Source: Rhodospirillaceae bacterium (GTDB taxonomy: Bacteria > Pseudomonadota > Gammaproteobacteria > Steroidobacterales > Rariloculaceae). From it: a stretch of DNA of 64,000 nucleotides. The translations under genes and the position numbers were made by a program. The stretch is from the NCBI GenBank assembly GCA_002718345.1, contig PBDA01000044.1:19226-83225 (forward strand), read 5' to 3'. Each line of letters opens with the position of its first letter. Positions within the stretch are counted from its first letter, which is position 1. Below the pieces are notes generated by a model. The model saw only the letters and a list, made by a program, of their open reading frames with translations. It was not told the DNA's origin and did not search any database. Below are positions 12,598 through 19,766 of this stretch, one piece after another.

Positions 12598-12674
12598 TGG
12601 TGGTGATGGGTGGACTTGAACCACCGACCTGCGGGTTATGAATCCGCCGCTCTTACCAACTGAGCTACATCACC
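12598..12674 (-). tRNA. tRNA with anticodon CAT (elongator tRNA-Met, or tRNA-Ile2 if C34 is lysidinylated)
   Basis: The reverse complement is GGTGATGTAGCTCAGTTGGTAAGAGCGGCGGATTCATAACCCGCAGGTCGGTGGTTCAAGTCCACCCATCACCACCA (77 nt). It folds with a perfect 7-bp acceptor stem, a 4-bp D stem (GCTC/GAGC), a 5-bp T stem (GGTGG/CCACC), the anticodon loop TTCATAA and an encoded CCA. G1-C72 are paired, so it is not an initiator tRNA. There is one A31-C39 mismatch. Confidence 0.9.
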
Positions 12675-13121: not shown

Positions 13122-13132
<11 letters not shown>

Positions 13133-14378
13133 TCATTTCGGGCTCGAGTGGGATACCCGTAATCTCTTCGGGACCGTCAGCCGTAATCAGAACGGTGCGT
13201 CCCATCATCAGGCCCGTGTCCTTATTCCAGTCTGGATCGTAGATATCCGACGCGGTCGCGAACACCATGTTCGGCTGAAACTCGATCGTTGGCATACGTG
13301 CGTAGGCATGCTTTTGCCACGAGCCAGCTGTGCCGCCGTACATGCAGCTCGGAAATTCAGGTGATGCCAAGCCGTGGCCGTGGAAACCGCATTCAACTGA
13401 GCCGAAGCCGGCATCGATGATGGGTTTGCGAAACGCGTGAACGGCGTCTTCGATGAGATTACCAGGCTTCATGGCCGCGATACCGCTCTTTTGAGTTTCG
13501 ACGCAGACTTCATGAATGCGTTGGTACTCGGGTTTGGGCTCACCGAGACAGACGGAAACTTCCGCACCCGTGAGGTAACCCTTGTAGCAGGCATGGTATT
13601 CGCACACGACGATGTCGCCCGCCTCGAGCACACGATGACTTGCCGGAGGCCGTTTGCCGTGGGGTGGCGGTACGGCTCCGGAGCTGATCCAGATCATGTC
13701 CTCTTCGCCACCGCCGTGCAGGTTGGCATGCAGCATGTCGGCATACACCTCGGTTTCACGCACGCCGGGGCGCGCCGATGCGATCAATGCATCTGCCATC
13801 GCTTTGGCCAATTCGGCGGATTTGCGTATGCACGCAACCTCCTCAGGTCCCTTGATGATGCGCGTTTGCTCGATGAGCCAACCGGCTTCGACGAATCGTG
13901 CGCTGTCGAGCGCCGATGCAATGTGCGAGAACTGTTGGAAGGGAACGGCCTCAGGGATAACACGTGGGCGCGTTTCGCCGAATCCGACGATACCGATTGC
14001 GGCGTTGGCGAATCCGCGGTCTCGCAGTGTCTCGACGATGTTGTTTGTCGTCGACTGACCGGATCGAACATCTTCGACCCAGCCGCCGGCAAGGGCGCCC
14101 CACTTCGTCACGTCATGTGGGAAGCCAGACCAGATAACCGGATCGCCATCTAGTGGGAAGAGCACACAGCCCGGCGCAACGCGACCTGTTAAATAGCGGT
14201 TGTTAGCGAGAGCGGATTCCCACTTTGATTCATTTCCCCAAACCAGCAGGCAGTCGAGTCCGGCCAGATCCATACGCCAGCGCACTTCGCGCCAGCGGCG
14301 GTCGCGCTCAGTTGCCGTTACGTCTGGCCACTCTCGGTCTGCCAGTTCCCCGACCATGTTGGCCTGTTCTGTTGCCAT
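13122..14378 (-). CDS. M24-family hydrolase, creatinase/Xaa-Pro peptidase-like, encoded in the high-GC patch
   Basis: It has a creatinase/prolidase-type N-terminal domain followed by a pita-bread fold region ([35 protein letters not shown]). The canonical metal-ligand Asp/His-Glu positions look substituted, as in creatinase-type members. The preferred start is the ATG at 14378, preceded by GGAGGAG; the track start at 14423 is also possible. Confidence 0.7.
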
Positions 14379-14431
14379 ACTTCCAGCTCCTCCATTCTTA
14401 TATAGCCGTTTTCTGCAAGACACCTAACAAA

Positions 14432-14596
14432 TTATCCAAAAATAACCCGGCCGTTATCTCGTAGTGTTGAGTCATAACACTGCATTCTGACTTCTGAAAA
14501 ATCCTCAACAGTTGCCGTACTTAGCCCATCATATCTTCCAGTTGCACAACCTGTTGCGATAATAATAAGGAAGGTTAGCAACAATATAAAGTTCAA
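14432..14596 (-). CDS. Possible small lipoprotein (54 aa, TTG start)
   Basis: My own translation is LNFILLLTFLIIIATGCATGRYDGLSTATVEDFSEVRMQCYDSTLRDNGRVIFG, with the lipobox IATGC. AAGAAAGGA lies about 10 nt upstream. It falls below the track length cutoff. Confidence 0.3.
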   Translation of the reverse strand: MNFILLLTFLIIIATGCATGRYDGLSTATVEDFSEVRMQCYDSTLRDNGRVIFG

Positions 14597-14662
14597 GCAT
14601 TGTCTATCCTTTCTTTAATCTTACTAGTAGTAAAATTGCACTTATTTTTTAAGAATAAAAAA

Positions 14663-14689
14663 ACAGCCCTGAAGTATTTTCAGGGCTGT
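14663..14689 (-). terminator. Rho-independent terminator downstream of the TonB-dependent receptor gene
   Basis: An 11-bp perfect stem ACAGCCCTGAA / TTCAGGGCTGT with a 5-nt loop. On the minus strand it is followed by a T7 run. It lies 34 nt after the receptor stop codon. Confidence 0.8.
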
Positions 14690-14722
14690 TTAAGGTTGCG
14701 AATTATCTAGTGTTAATTAATA

Positions 14723-16873
14723 TCAAAACGAGTAATTAAATTTCACACCAAGATTTCTGCCTGGGAGTGGAACTTGGTCTTTAACAAAAGATGTATGGTT
14801 TCTTGCAATTTCATCAAGAAGATTATGTCCAAAAATAGTTACAGCAAACTGTCCATTTGAACCGACAACATCAAAGGTTTTTGTTAATTGAGCACCTAAC
14901 AACTGAAAACCATTAGATGCGGTTTCGTTTTGTGCGAGATTAGTTACTCTATCAACATCTTTTACGTCAACAGACCACTCTAGGTTATTTTGGGAATAAT
15001 AGGATAATGAGTAAAGGTATCTAGAAGGCATCATTCGGGGGATATAGGCACCATTACTGAATTTCCCTGAAATATCATCCCTGCCGAACGAGACATCAAC
15101 TAGGCCAGATCCTATTTCAAAGCTCTTTCCAATTTCTAACTCATAACCAGATATCTCCGCATCTCTTTGCAAGTAGTTTGCAACTAGCAGCCCTTCTTCC
15201 TTTTTAGTTGAGTCTAAAAGATAAATGTAATTATCAACATTATTATTATAAAAACTCAATGTTCCATAAAAATAATCATTCTCAACATTTACAGTTAAAT
15301 CCAAGTTTGTGGATTTTTCTGCTCTTAGGTTCGTATTTCCCTCTTCAAATCTGCTTGTAGCTAGGTGAGGACCATTCATGAATAGTTCTACTGCAGAAGG
15401 AGCTCTTTCTACACCTGCTACACCTAATGATATATGCCACATGTCATTCAGTTGGCGGCCTATGCTAAATGCCAAACTGGACCCATCGTAGTCTTTATCA
15501 TAAGCAGTGGATTCATCATGATGTTCCTCTTCCTCTTCCTCTTCCTCTTCATGTTCATGGGCTTTAATCGAACCTTTTCGGTTGATTTGATCAACTCTAA
15601 AACCAGCGTCTAATTCAAAACCGCCAATCTCTCTGCTTGCATAATAGCCAAAAGAGTTTTCTGTATTTTGAGCGGGCTGCATGAATACTTCTTTGCCTAT
15701 TATTGAAGTGTCTTCTTCAACGAATCTCATGACAACTTTTTGTGTCATTAAATCATTGCTGAGGTCAAATATTGCACCGTATTCTTTAGCATCATTTGTA
15801 AATTTAGTGGGGCCTGCATGATGCTCTTCTTCTTCCTCTTCCTCCTCATCTTCATCGTGGTGCACTTCCGCATGTGCCTCGGTTAATTTGTAATCGCTAT
15901 TTCTGAAGTAATAATCCATTTGTTGAATGAAGTTATTGTTGAAGTTAAATGCACCTTCTATATTTATTACATCAGATTTTGTGGTGCTGAAGATTCTTTC
16001 ATCTTCGTGTTCTTCCTCTTCCTCCTCATCTTCATCGTGGTGCACTTCCGCATGAAAAGGAATCCCATAGACGCTCTCTATATTGCTAGCAGAAAAACCT
16101 ACGTAACCCCAATCCTCAACCCATGAAAAGCCTATTCGGTTTGACTCAGACTCATAATCAGAGTTCTTTAAGTAATCCAAGTCTTCTTCATGATGATCCT
16201 CTTCCTCTCCTTCATGCTCTTCTTCTTCAGCATGAATAATTGATTTAAGGGGGACATCATAGTTGCCAAATTCAGATTTTTTATGTGAAAAAGTGAAATT
16301 CATATCACCTAAAAATTCCACATTATTTTGATATGAAAGATTACGTGTATCTCCACCATTTACTGATTGGCCCTCTACGCCTAGTTTTAGTTCTGGCCCA
16401 GTAAAATCTTCTCTAGCTATGGTGTTATCAACTATATTAACTACTCCGCCAACACCTCCATTGGCATAAAGCAAGGAGGCCGGTCCTCTGACAACTTCAA
16501 TTTGCTGAATATTATTCATATCAATAGCTTGACTATGGTCAGCACCTAATCCTGAGACATCTCTTACAACCATAGAGTTATTAAGAACTTTTACTCGGCC
16601 ACCAGATAATCCTCGAATAACTGGCTGTCCAACTGCTGTCCCATAGTCTGCTGAACCTACACCTAAAAGATTGTCTAGAGCTTCGCCTAAACTTTGGGTT
16701 GAGAAATTACCGATTGCATCACCACTGACAATATGAAGTGGGTCTGCAATTTCAGATATTAGCTGGTCCGTAAAAGAAGAAGTAACCACTACTTCTTCCA
16801 TCTCTTGTCCAATTACAAAATTGGCAAATAATGCACTTACTAGTATCAGTACACTACGAAAATACTTCCTCAT
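14723..16873 (-). CDS. TonB-dependent outer-membrane receptor with four His/Glu-rich insertions (candidate divalent-metal, e.g. zinc, receptor)
   Basis: 716 aa with a signal peptide. It has a plug region (VVVTSS...PVIRGL...VVRGP), a C-terminal barrel and a terminal F. The inserts are HAEEEEHEGEEEDHHEED, HAEVHHDEDEEEEEEHEDE, HAEVHHDEDEEEEEEEEHHAG and KAHEHEEEEEEEEEHHDE. Confidence 0.85.
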   Translation of the reverse strand: MRKYFRSVLILVSALFANFVIGQEMEEVVVTSSFTDQLISEIADPLHIVSGDAIGNFSTQSLGEALDNLLGVGSADYGTAVGQPVIRGLSGGRVKVLNNSMVVRDVSGLGADHSQAIDMNNIQQIEVVRGPASLLYANGGVGGVVNIVDNTIAREDFTGPELKLGVEGQSVNGGDTRNLSYQNNVEFLGDMNFTFSHKKSEFGNYDVPLKSIIHAEEEEHEGEEEDHHEEDLDYLKNSDYESESNRIGFSWVEDWGYVGFSASNIESVYGIPFHAEVHHDEDEEEEEEHEDERIFSTTKSDVINIEGAFNFNNNFIQQMDYYFRNSDYKLTEAHAEVHHDEDEEEEEEEEHHAGPTKFTNDAKEYGAIFDLSNDLMTQKVVMRFVEEDTSIIGKEVFMQPAQNTENSFGYYASREIGGFELDAGFRVDQINRKGSIKAHEHEEEEEEEEEHHDESTAYDKDYDGSSLAFSIGRQLNDMWHISLGVAGVERAPSAVELFMNGPHLATSRFEEGNTNLRAEKSTNLDLTVNVENDYFYGTLSFYNNNVDNYIYLLDSTKKEEGLLVANYLQRDAEISGYELEIGKSFEIGSGLVDVSFGRDDISGKFSNGAYIPRMMPSRYLYSLSYYSQNNLEWSVDVKDVDRVTNLAQNETASNGFQLLGAQLTKTFDVVGSNGQFAVTIFGHNLLDEIARNHTSFVKDQVPLPGRNLGVKFNYSF
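15830..15874. repeat. Copy 1 of a perfect 45-bp direct repeat inside the receptor gene
   Basis: The sequence ttcttcctcttcctcctcatcttcatcgtggtgcacttccgcatg is identical at 15830-15874 and 16010-16054. The offset is 180 bp, so the copies are in frame. Each encodes HAEVHHDEDEEEEE. Confidence 0.9.
16010..16054. repeat. Copy 2 of the perfect 45-bp direct repeat inside the receptor gene
   Basis: See copy 1; the two copies were compared base by base. Confidence 0.9.
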
Positions 16874-16921: not shown

Positions 16922-17191
16922 TTAAATTTTTGGAGGTGCCCTTGATTGAAAGCCTCTGGGGGCCAGAGAGAAGAAAACATCTTTCATTTGCAATGAAAGA
17001 GTTTCGGACAAAGTAACTGTTGAGATTACTAGTGATGATACAACCGTATCAGATATATCATTCTTGCAAAACTGGCATTCTATTTGTGCAGTTTCACTGT
17101 CTGAATAAGCATGATAAACAACATCCAAAGAAGTAGAAGCCAGAAACAAAAAGCTGGCTATAACAAACATTTTATGGGTTGCTTTACTCAT
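16922..17191 (-). CDS. Small exported hypothetical protein with a C-x-x-C motif, immediately upstream of the TonB-dependent receptor
   Basis: 89 aa. The signal-like N-terminus is MSKATHKMFVIASFLFLASTS, followed by HAYSDSETAQIECQFCK. Small H/C-motif proteins often accompany metal receptors. The C-terminal third looks non-genic, so the extent is uncertain. Confidence 0.35.
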   Translation of the reverse strand: MSKATHKMFVIASFLFLASTSLDVVYHAYSDSETAQIECQFCKNDISDTVVSSLVISTVTLSETLSLQMKDVFFSLAPRGFQSRAPPKI

Positions 17192-17280: not shown

Positions 17281-17297
17281 AATTATTTCAAATAATT
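17281..17297. promoter_or_regulatory. Perfect 8-1-8 AT-rich palindrome, candidate Fur-family (Fur/Zur-like) operator
   Basis: The sequence is AATTATTTcAAATAATT. It lies 90 nt upstream of the ATG at 17191 of the small-protein/receptor unit and contains ATTAT/ATAAT half-site-like cores. Confidence 0.25.
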
Positions 17298-17360: not shown

Positions 17361-17981
17361 TTAGTTTTCCATTTCGAGCATTTCTAAGGCATAACGCAAC
17401 GTGCCTTCGCCATCAACTCGTTCACGGAAACTTTCAATAAAAACTTTCCCAACAATTTCATTATTTAAATTGACCACAAAAACGCCAGGATGAGGAATTC
17501 CATAAGCAGGCTCTCCCGGGCTGTATTGTTCATTCAATATCCCTAAAGCCGATATAGTTGAAGTATCAATATCGGAAATAAAGGGATAGGTTAAATTACC
17601 GGCATTAATAAATTCTTGCTGAAGTTCAGGTGAATCGTAAGTTATAACAACAATTCCAACCCCAGCCTCTTCGTAATCTTCAGCATTATTTTGCAACTGC
17701 CCGAGTTGCTCTCTACAAAATGGTCACCAATCAACGGAACGAATTGCAAAAACAACAAGCCCCTTTTCCCCATAAAACTGGCTAACACTAGTAATTTCTT
17801 GCCCGCCATAAATTGCCCGTATTTCTGGAAACAGAGAACCTATAGACAGGCCTGGATCAAAGGAATCTGTATCTTCATACAGGAACATATTATCCAAGTT
17901 AGGTTGTGCCTGTACTACACGTAATGAAATCATCCACACCAATACCAGAAGAAATGCAGGAAAAAGTTTATTTAATTTCAT
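17361..17981 (-). CDS. Exported AhpC/TSA (redoxin) family thiol peroxidase/oxidoreductase, candidate selenoprotein with U-x-x-C active site (in-frame TGA at 17726-17724)
   Basis: Track ORFs 17724..17981 and 17361..17696 share one frame. Read through, the junction is ...FAIRSVDW-TGA-PFCREQLGQLQNNAEDYEEAGVGIVVITYD.... The N-terminal signal peptide is MKLNKLFPAFLLVLVWMISLRVVQA. The downstream redoxin body includes FPFISD-type and PGVFVVN motifs. Confidence 0.6.
17688..17721 (-). promoter_or_regulatory. Candidate bacterial SECIS hairpin
   Basis: The mRNA reads UGA-CC-AUUUU-GUAGAGA-GCAACU-CGGGC-AGUUGC-AAAAU. This gives a 6-bp perfect upper stem, the G-rich apical loop CGGGC about 20-24 nt after the UGA, and a possible 5-bp lower stem with a 7-nt bulge. 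Confidence 0.45.
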
Positions 17982-18831: not shown

Positions 18832-19766
18832 TAGATTTGATCAATATATGCTCTCATCCGTTCCCTTGCTGCAGTATCAGGCATTCCCCCGAGAGGCGCT
18901 CTAGCATTCTCTGCCATATGATGAGGATTGCTAGTCTCAGTTAGTACGCATGTAACAGTAGGGTGAGAAAGGATGTACTTAAGAGAAAATTGTGCCCAGC
19001 TCTCACAATCAAATTCTGCTGTCCAGTCAGGAAGTGGTACTCCCTGAAGACGCTGAAAATAGGCACCATTCATAAAAGGTCGATTGAGAAGCACCGCAAG
19101 ACCCATGTCCTCTGCTAACGGTAACAAACGTTCTTCAGCACGCCTTTCAGTGACAGAGTAGTTCATCTGAACAAAGTCAGGTGTTTCACGGCCTAAAAAT
19201 TCTTCAAGTTGATCGTAGAGACGGTATTCGGAAACAGTAACGCCAATATAACGGGCATGCCCTTCTTCTTTCCATTGCTGGAGGTTTTCCCACTGGGTAT
19301 CCAAATCAGTCAGACTAAAAATCTGCACAAGATCAATTGTTTCCCTGCGATAGAGTCTTTGAGTCTCGCGAAACTGTTGAATGCCAGCTTCTTTGCCAAC
19401 TTTATCAATCTTGGTTGTCACAAAAAGGGAGTTACGAAGATCTGGGGCACTCAACACCTGACCAAGGCCAGCATCGTTTTCAGGATTTCTTGGCCATGTA
19501 TCAACAACACTACCTCCACTATCACGAAGTGTTCTCAAAACTGCAGCAAGTGGGTCCATTCCATTAGAAGAAACCTCAGATACAACCTTACTAGAACCTA
19601 GTCCCACGACAGGCAGAGCTTCCCCTGTTGATGGTATAAGTCGCTGTGGCATCTGATTTTGAGCAAATAAGGGGCTAGAACTCAACCCGGAAACACCCAA
19701 AGCTGACAACGTTGCAATGAAATCTCTGCGTGTAGTTGAAAAAATTTTGTCTACTTCTTTCTGCAC
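18831..19766 (-). CDS. Aldo/keto reductase with a twin-arginine (Tat) signal peptide
   Basis: 311 aa. The N-terminus is STTRRDFIATLSALGVSGLSSSPLFAQ. The AKR body is clearly paralogous to 8120..9052, sharing LPVVGLGS, YIGVT, NYSVTERRAEERLLPLA and PDWTAEFDCESWAQF. Confidence 0.75.
   Translation of the reverse strand: MQKEVDKIFSTTRRDFIATLSALGVSGLSSSPLFAQNQMPQRLIPSTGEALPVVGLGSSKVVSEVSSNGMDPLAAVLRTLRDSGGSVVDTWPRNPENDAGLGQVLSAPDLRNSLFVTTKIDKVGKEAGIQQFRETQRLYRRETIDLVQIFSLTDLDTQWENLQQWKEEGHARYIGVTVSEYRLYDQLEEFLGRETPDFVQMNYSVTERRAEERLLPLAEDMGLAVLLNRPFMNGAYFQRLQGVPLPDWTAEFDCESWAQFSLKYILSHPTVTCVLTETSNPHHMAENARAPLGGMPDTAARERMRAYIDQI

Follow-up and report, generated by a model that had tools for sequence, protein, structure and literature searches.

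A gene of 2151 nt on the minus strand of the DNA stretch analysed here (64,000 nt, positions 19,226 to 83,225 of contig PBDA01000044.1 in assembly GCA_002718345.1; referred to as the window) encodes a TonB-dependent receptor, which is probably an outer-membrane transporter of the ZnuD family whose substrate is a divalent trace-metal cation in free or labile form, most likely zinc. Four of its loops carry segments rich in His, Glu and Asp, here called cassettes, and the ligands of the buried zinc site of neisserial ZnuD are found at the aligned positions. The gene and the elements at its two ends are as follows.

14723-16873, minus strand: TonB-dependent receptor gene, 716 amino acids, ATG start, ZnuD family in the broad sense (open reading frame (ORF); Pfam, NCBIfam, PDB and Foldseek matches)
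16775-16798, minus strand: TonB-box-like motif EEVVVTSS, residues 26-33, directly after the signal peptide (sequence reading)
14661-14691, minus strand: terminator-like hairpin followed by a T-run, 32 nt past the receptor stop codon

Pfam assigned a Plug domain (1e-16) and a TonB-dependent barrel domain (3e-22) to the protein, in agreement with a first-pass annotation of the window, which had proposed a TonB-dependent receptor with four His/Glu-rich segments; all four are exactly present in the 716-residue ORF. An AlphaFold2 (AF2) model computed with an alignment of 36 homologues (mean predicted local distance difference test score (pLDDT) 71, predicted template modelling score (pTM) 0.75) contained 22 β-strands after the plug. 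The motif EEVVVTSS, at which the family consensus reads EIEEVIVTSS, was judged by eye, and we take it to resemble TonB boxes such as DTLVVTA. The C-terminal end …KFNYSF provides the aromatic last residue asked of the TonB-dependent receptor superfamily. Plug and 22-strand barrel as well as TonB box and C-terminal aromatic residue, the features by which such receptors are recognized, were found in the same protein.

The cassettes and the corresponding position of a loop without one were located as follows.

16175-16234, minus strand: cassette 1, HAEEEEHEGEEEDHHEEDLD, residues 214-233, extracellular loop L2 (AF2 model, β3-β4)
15998-16054, minus strand: cassette 2, HAEVHHDEDEEEEEEHEDE, residues 274-292, loop L3, donor of a gene conversion (AF2 strand order)
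15812-15874, minus strand: cassette 3, HAEVHHDEDEEEEEEEEHHAG, residues 334-354, loop L4 (AF2 strand order)
15512-15565, minus strand: cassette 4, KAHEHEEEEEEEEEHHDE, residues 437-454, loop L6 (AF2 strand order)
15182-15205, minus strand: loop L8, residues 557-564 STKKEEGL, without a cassette in the window receptor (alignment with relatives)

In the AF2 model, cassette 1 (there residues 209-233) connects β3 to β4 and constitutes L2, cassette 2 (272-293) connects β5 to β6 in L3, cassette 3 (335-356) connects β7 to β8 in L4 and cassette 4 (438-454) connects β11 to β12 in L6. All of them are odd-to-even strand connections, and counting the strands from either end gave the same assignment. Periplasmic turns of the model comprise 2-7 residues. 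Moreover, L3, L6 and L11 align to loops 3, 6 and 11 of the ZnuD crystal structure, so that the two numberings agree; cassette 4 corresponds to ZnuD loop 6, residues 430-459. A position in periplasmic turns or in the plug, which the first-pass annotation had named as the outcome that would speak against it, was not seen, since the model puts all four cassettes in extracellular loops. Their pLDDT values below 50 suggest that the cassettes are disordered.

The likeness to ZnuD, raised in the same annotation for the His- and Glu-rich loops, extends to sequence, profile and fold, by each of which ZnuD is the nearest characterized relative. When the single receptor sequence was compared with PDB sequences by phmmer, ZnuD was the best match (4e-35). 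Foldseek likewise returned ZnuD (1e-37, TM-score 0.75-0.88), followed by the copper transporter OprC (1e-27). An exhaustive search of 1.84 billion representative proteins provided relatives with 26-48% identity, and a broad family profile (A4) was built from 60 representatives in this range. The profile aligned ZnuD end to end with an E-value of 1.2e-160, the next PDB match being the haem receptor PhuR (3e-41). The central region of ZnuD could be aligned by this broad profile only; the single sequence and a narrow profile failed there. In the HMMER alignments to 4rdr the chain number equals the mature number plus 14, and the residues aligned to zinc ligands were the following.

16535-16540, minus strand: D112-H113, plug apical loop, corresponding to the ZnuD zinc ligands Asp-99 and His-100 (HMMER alignments to 4rdr)
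15878-15880, minus strand: E332, corresponding to the ZnuD zinc ligand Glu-340 (chain E354; profile A4 alignment)
15365-15367, minus strand: H503, loop L7, corresponding to the ZnuD zinc ligand His-499 (phmmer and profile alignments to ZnuD)

Asp99, His100, Glu340 and His499 form the buried high-affinity zinc site of ZnuD (PMC4557270). Their four counterparts are invariant in the 60-sequence A4 alignment and kept in 133-134 of 135 representatives (E332 in 134); D112 and H113 are invariant in alignment A1 as well. Furthermore, the start of the L3 cassette aligns to cluster 1 of ZnuD, 241-HSHEYDDCHAD, which is a crystallographic Cd/Zn site. The best NCBIfam match of the receptor was also ZnuD, with 222 bits; the corresponding model NF038289 covers close orthologues only and has a cutoff of 950 bits. 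Among the features that mark the ZnuD family, the buried Asp-His, Glu and His site and a flexible His/Asp/Glu-rich extracellular loop 3 were present, and the curated full-length score was not reached. As ZnuD is the best match throughout, and the four zinc ligands and the position of the L3 cluster align, the receptor is on sequence grounds assigned to the ZnuD family in the broad sense.

A word-indexed search retrieved 5,053 clusters of receptor homologues at E ≤ 1e-10, and cassette number and composition were determined for the best 120 of these (49-100% identical). Five His/Glu/Asp cassettes occur in 89 of the 120 closest homologues, as opposed to four in the window receptor, and the median total cassette length is 118 amino acids versus 92 here. 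Within this family the four cassettes can hence not be regarded as an extreme version of such loops, as had been proposed. In the 120 homologues the cassettes consist of 41% Glu, 19.5% His, 14% Asp and 9% Gly, with almost no Met or Cys (one Cys in all 120 proteins), and His makes up only 1.3% of the residues outside them. Comparison of 200 relatives revealed that loop length varies only in L2, L3, L4, L6 and L8 (standard deviation 5.6-9.4 amino acids, ranges up to 15-67 amino acids; L2 spans 13-45 amino acids across the family). The same five loops are 67-88% His/Glu/Asp. L1, L5, L7, L9, L10, L11 and all ten periplasmic turns are near-constant in length. Most relatives have the fifth cassette in L8 (LLDETEEEH…HEGL), where the window clade reads …LLDSTKKEEGLL… without a cassette; the window gene has lost it.

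Among distant representatives an acidic, His-rich L3 is near-universal and a corresponding L2 common, while L4, L6 and L8 cassettes are largely limited to the marine branch, a distribution suggesting that cassettes spread stepwise from an ancestral ZnuD-like L3. The His-rich L3 can be followed to about 26% identity and the His/Glu/Asp(/Gly) composition to about 40%, and the family has conserved anchor residues, among them H274. According to genome records the carriers are SAR86, SAR92/Porticoccaceae, Luminiphilus/Halieaceae, Woeseiaceae, OCS116 and the PS1 clade; the nearest relatives, which are approximately 81% identical, are labelled Gammaproteobacteria and Candidatus Rariloculaceae. Thousands of marine relatives carry cassettes in the same loops, and the window gene is a typical, slightly reduced member of its family.

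Cassettes 2 and 3 share a direct repeat.

16010-16054, minus strand: copy A of the 45-bp exact repeat, within the L3 cassette (repeat finder and direct comparison)
15830-15874, minus strand: copy B, first 15 codons of the L4 cassette (repeat finder and direct comparison)

The repeat and its offset of 180 bp, both reported in the first-pass annotation, were confirmed. It is in frame, begins at a His codon and has sharp edges with unrelated flanks on both sides. The longest exact repeat between cassettes had a median length of 17.5 bp among 82 family genes. At 45 bp the window gene ranks third, and the two genes with longer repeats contain short tandem units, whereas the window repeat is aperiodic. 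Low-complexity chance is therefore not an adequate explanation, and sharp edges, aperiodicity and unusual length in the family support the recent intragenic event that had been postulated. Collapse or another artefact of assembly, which had been raised as a possible objection, was excluded, because four contigs, which stem from different Tara Oceans samples and assemblers, contain the 2151-nt gene with 0 mismatches and the reads and assembly k-mers should exceed the repeat in length.

In the 81% relatives, L3 begins with HAEVHH(E)DEDEEE, the same as in the window receptor and hence ancestral for this loop, and L4 begins with HAEEHEEEEE and ends with …HH(E)AGP. The window L4 has kept the tail EEHHAGP, and its first 15 codons are identical to L3. 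With 22 amino acids it is no longer than L4 of these relatives (approximately 23-26 amino acids), so that sequence was replaced and not inserted. The repeat is accordingly read from these alignments as a recent non-reciprocal gene conversion of L3 into L4 that overwrote the start of an L4 cassette already in place. The original suggestion that two of the cassettes arose by duplication was rejected: the tail of L4 is ancestral, L4 is not lengthened, and the cassettes themselves are ancestral because relatives with as little as about 40% identity carry cassettes in the same loops. Repeats shared exactly between loops (37-50 bp) were also present in the family loci L051, L038, L048, L052 and L082, and one strain variant has an L6-type DHDHEEEDHDEEE block inserted in L3.

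Differences in poly-Glu length between strains, anticipated from the long GAA/GAG runs, were indeed seen among near-identical sequences. The cluster of at least 90% identity that contains the window receptor holds three full-length sequences, which differ in only five substitution columns; its only indels are a 3-amino-acid deletion in L2 of a strain more than 99% identical and two extra Glu residues in L6 carried by two near-identical strains. In two neighbouring clusters (12 and 13 sequences) all internal indels fall in cassettes, except for one single-residue gap in the signal peptide, and most of the cassette indels are poly-Glu changes of 1-5 residues. Short-read errors could account for some of the variation, but several alleles were seen in more than one sequence. 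We propose that the cassettes evolve as coding microsatellites, in which GAA/GAG slippage would shift the length between strains and inter-loop gene conversion would homogenize the cassettes, the 45-bp repeat being one recent L3-to-L4 case.

The receptor gene is preceded by a small gene that recurs in the family.

16922-17191, minus strand: upstream partner gene, 89 amino acids, with signal peptide, His motif, ECQFCKN (CxxC) and C-terminal SRAPPKI (ORF)

The end of the partner gene and the start of the receptor gene are separated by 48 nt, in which an AAAGGAG ribosome-binding site is located. Of 80 related loci, 65 have a partner homologue directly upstream and on the same strand, and three of the others are truncated there. 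Proteins of this family have about 90 amino acids and consist of a signal peptide, typically …SxSA↓DP, an HDH His motif, ECQxCxN, a variable linker and C-terminal (S)RAPP; H27, C39, C42, P86 and P87 are invariant. The partner protein matched no Pfam or NCBIfam family at E ≤ 1, and a word-based search yielded only four close database relatives, all of them unnamed or 'hypothetical'. In 10-11 loci a gene for a MerC-family membrane protein (Pfam 1e-26) follows closely downstream of the receptor on the same strand, with a median gap of 74 nt (L023, L019, L029, L035, L046, L047, L051, L052, L054 and L068; the gap is 260 nt in L023). One further locus has a MerC-family gene upstream of the partner-receptor pair.

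Two other genes were encountered next to the pair in related loci. A zinc-type alcohol dehydrogenase gene (ADH_N/ADH_zinc_N) lies about 320 nt upstream on the same strand in 11 loci, e.g. L047 (3704-4762); this linkage concerns a subset of SAR86 loci and may be coincidental synteny. A further TonB-dependent receptor, unrelated to the one with His/Glu loops and about 860 amino acids long, is encoded in 23 SAR86 loci (e.g. L038, 10390-12969); it follows the His/Glu-loop receptor downstream, some 96 nt away and on the same strand.

Upstream regions were searched for regulatory elements. A scan of 66 of them displayed neither a Fur box nor a full-length gammaproteobacterial Zur box. A perfect core of the Zur box (GTTAT-N3-ATAAC), ATGTTATGTTATAACAT, was found in the Woeseiaceae locus L023, between a TATAAT box and the likely start codon of the partner gene. 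Partner, receptor and MerC genes form a self-contained three-gene unit downstream of these two elements there. Perfect Zur cores occur only three times in 1.22 Mb of related loci.

L023, 2005-2021: Zur-box core
L023, 4730-5170: MerC gene
Window, 17281-17297, strand not applicable: perfect 8-1-8 palindrome AATTATTTGAAATAATT, about 90-105 nt upstream of the partner gene (palindrome search)

The palindrome AATTATTTGAAATAATT is unique in the window, but as at least one match occurred in 17 of 100 shuffles it is not significant. Neither a riboswitch nor another Rfam element was detected upstream of the window receptor operon. De novo searches for k-mers and palindromes in the upstream regions revealed only lineage-specific palindromes and a σ70-type promoter of a SAR86 subclade. 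The latter, CTTGAAAAA-N17-TGGTCTAGTAT, lies about 20-50 nt upstream of the partner gene (L037, L025, L033, L036, L043, L028, L034, L083 and L041). The very short leader and the lack of a visible operator hint at constitutive expression in this subclade.

The analysis shows the fold and the loop topology, the conservation of the ligands, the distribution of the family, the polymorphism and the linkage of the genes, whereas we infer metal binding by the loops, zinc specificity and the role of the partner protein. In the proposed mechanism the disordered, strongly anionic His/Glu/Asp loops L2, L3, L4 and L6 would form a crown at the mouth of the barrel and catch metal ions through weak multidentate binding. 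The ions would then be passed inward to a buried tetrahedral site composed of D112 and H113 at the plug apex, E332 at the end of β7 and H503 in L7, and TonB-driven movement of the plug would release them into the periplasm. A 'fishing-net' capture model has been proposed for loop 3 of ZnuD (PMC4557270), and the multi-loop cassettes would extend it. The co-transcribed, secreted 89-amino-acid His/CxxC protein is probably a periplasmic acceptor or chaperone, and in some relatives the MerC-family inner-membrane protein may complete the metal route.

Several points weigh against this interpretation. With a score of 222 bits, far under the 950-bit cutoff, the window receptor is by sequence not orthologous to neisserial ZnuD. 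It is not adjoined by znuABC, zur or MerC genes in the window (tblastn for MerC, Pfam for the near neighbours), and the near neighbours are unrelated enzymes according to Pfam. The Zur or Fur box that the first-pass annotation had suggested looking for was not found upstream of the window operon. In the window, metal-responsive regulation is thus unsupported, given neither a Fur or Zur box nor a riboswitch. In most relatives a Zur or Fur box was likewise not found (4 near-matches in 80 promoter regions versus 1.7 expected), only the Zur core of L023 being convincing, and there is no obvious operator at the σ70-type promoter of the SAR86 subclade. The cassettes are of low confidence in the model, so their conformation and their proximity to the buried site are putative. 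Co, Cd, Ni, Cu, Fe(II) or Mn would fit an N2O2 site and His/Glu loops just as well. In seawater, poly-Glu would be largely occupied by Mg and Ca.

It appears unlikely that the same ZnuD-fold machine serves a different substrate, such as Co, Cd, Ni, Cu, Mn or inorganic Fe, or has broad specificity. Neither His/Glu/Asp ligands nor an Asp-His-Glu-His site is specific to zinc, the loop sites of ZnuD themselves bind Cd, and a Zur box occurs in one lineage only. Yet all four zinc-site residues of the sole characterized homologue are kept, and the only recognizable operator is a Zur box, neither Fur- nor Nur-type. Copper is suggested by OprC as the second-best structural match; the cassettes, however, are unlike copper sites in being nearly devoid of Met and Cys. 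The linked genes point toward other metals to some extent, since the MerC family is, according to its Pfam name, known for Hg and Cd transport and the invariant His and CxxC of the partner would suit soft or borderline metals.

Improbable in our view is the explanation that the cassettes are a hypervariable low-complexity decoration (neutral microsatellites, evasion of phages or grazers, surface charge) and that transport proceeds via the buried site alone. Extreme length polymorphism is confined to the cassette loops even among strains more than 99% identical, slippage and inter-loop conversion recur in the family, and some members with an intact Asp-His-Glu-His site, e.g. P0160 and P0163, have few or no cassettes. 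Drift or pure selection for variability would, however, not preserve a composition, and here His/Glu/Asp(/Gly) is held to about 40% identity and the His-rich L3 to about 26%. In addition, anchor residues such as H274 are conserved and the homologous ZnuD loop binds metal in crystals. Scarcely credible is a receptor for haem or haemoproteins of the TonB-hemin type. The NCBIfam TonB-hemin model did match (2e-32), but its score of 113 bits lies under the 317-bit cutoff of TIGR01785. PhuR, ShuA and ChuA are among the structural and profile matches, yet the family profile favours ZnuD by about 120 orders of magnitude. Haem receptors pair facing histidines from the plug apex and an L7-type loop, as ZnuD does (PMC4557270); nevertheless, the two further residues of the zinc site, Asp and Glu, are invariant, and ZnuD, which owns the same site, does not bind haem (PMC4557270). 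The genes linked to the receptor are those for the CxxC/SRAPP protein and MerC, with no linked haem-utilization genes.

Zn, Co and Cd are scarce and biologically cycled in the surface ocean. To our knowledge, their outer-membrane uptake by dominant heterotrophs such as SAR86 and SAR92 is essentially undescribed. ZnuD and its His/Asp loop are already known, and hence so is the kind of system. In the literature searched we found no description of a marine branch, of receptors with multiple His/Glu loops, of evolution by slippage and inter-loop conversion, or of linked SRAPP and MerC genes, an absence which is no proof of novelty. Tentatively, and with more doubt than confidence, we suggest that a very large uncharacterized marine branch of the ZnuD family (SAR86, SAR92/Porticoccaceae, Halieaceae, Woeseiaceae, OCS116 and the PS1 clade) represents a compact, undescribed module for trace-metal uptake with at most three parts: the secreted His/CxxC/SRAPP protein, an antenna receptor whose hypermutable His/Glu loops number as many as five and, frequently, a MerC-type inner-membrane permease. 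If true, it would be a main route for picomolar zinc (or Co/Cd) in abundant ocean heterotrophs, its antenna length tuned between strains by slippage and conversion.

Taken alone, the window gene is an ordinary member of its family. The family as a whole has retained the ZnuD zinc site in full and expanded the number of capture loops as much as five-fold. It could serve as a gene marker in metatranscriptomic and proteomic studies of trace-metal stress, and the unannotated SRAPP partner protein is a target for characterization. Microsatellites and inter-loop conversion that vary the length of a ligand-capture surface between strains moreover amount to a natural experiment.

Further observations concern the surroundings of the operon and the origin of the contig. 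A secreted protein of the AhpC/TSA-redoxin fold is encoded at 17361-17981 (minus strand) in one 206-codon frame with a single in-frame TGA at 17724-17726, which gene callers divide into ORFs of 85 and 111 amino acids. The context …SVDW-TGA-PFC… would place U-x-x-C where redoxins have CxxC, which makes the product a candidate selenocysteine protein. A 6-bp hairpin, GCAACU-CGGGC-AGUUGC, which resembles a selenocysteine insertion sequence, begins 17 nt past the TGA, but its fold energy is no better than that of shuffled sequences, and no tRNA-Sec was found in the window. Just downstream of the receptor, an M24 metallopeptidase/creatinase-like gene (13122-14423, minus strand) has about 58% GC versus about 41% for the genome and adjoins a tRNA-Met (12598-12674), an arrangement that is repeated in independent Tara contigs; high GC content and the neighbouring tRNA-Met suggest a horizontally acquired insertion. 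A small ORF (14432-14596, minus strand) between the receptor terminator and the M24 gene has a lipoprotein-type signal, …LIIIATGC…; this ORF is not shared by the 81% relative L005. An identical receptor protein (P0001) is labelled 'MAG: Rhodospirillaceae bacterium' by NCBI. All its close relatives bear the label Gammaproteobacteria or Candidatus Rariloculaceae, and most of the wider family is gammaproteobacterial. The Rhodospirillaceae label of this metagenome-assembled genome is probably wrong, judged by these relatives.

Compared with known systems, the receptor shares with the copper TonB-dependent transporters OprC/NosA (PDB 6FOK), its second-best structural match, a free metal ion as putative substrate and a buried site. 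OprC has a Cys/Met/His site and no His/Glu cassettes, and its Foldseek E-value is ten orders weaker than that of ZnuD. The His/Asp loop of ZnuA and PA4063 (PMC8561739) are likewise disordered, His-containing and acidic and have been proposed to capture zinc for a site of higher affinity; these proteins are periplasmic and of unrelated folds, and the resemblance to the receptor cassettes is one in principle only. ZnuK, ZnuL and ZnuM of Caulobacter (PMC4176598) are a further case in which environmental bacteria scavenge zinc via TonB-dependent receptors. The Caulobacter Zur-box core GTTAT-N3-ATAAC recurs perfectly before the L023 operon, whereas the window operon has no such Zur support.

The closest system is ZnuD (TdfJ) of Neisseria meningitidis (PDB 4RDR/4RDT/4RVW; Calmettes et al. 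2015, PMC4557270). Both proteins have a 22-strand barrel with plug and TonB box, all four buried zinc ligands of ZnuD are kept in the window receptor, and a flexible His/Asp/Glu-rich loop 3 begins at the same position as the L3 cassette. The L7 motif ERxPS…ELxxxGxHxAT…GNxxL is also common to both. Overall identity, in contrast, is only about 21%, and ZnuD belongs to a pathogen whereas the host of the window receptor is a free-living marine bacterium. The window receptor further differs from ZnuD in its linkage to a small CxxC/SRAPP protein, in relatives also to MerC, and in having no Zur box in the window. In ZnuD, His/Asp clusters occur in loop 3 only, inside a long structured loop; the window receptor instead carries short, Glu-dominated and presumably disordered cassettes in L2, L3, L4 and L6, joined in its relatives by one in L8.

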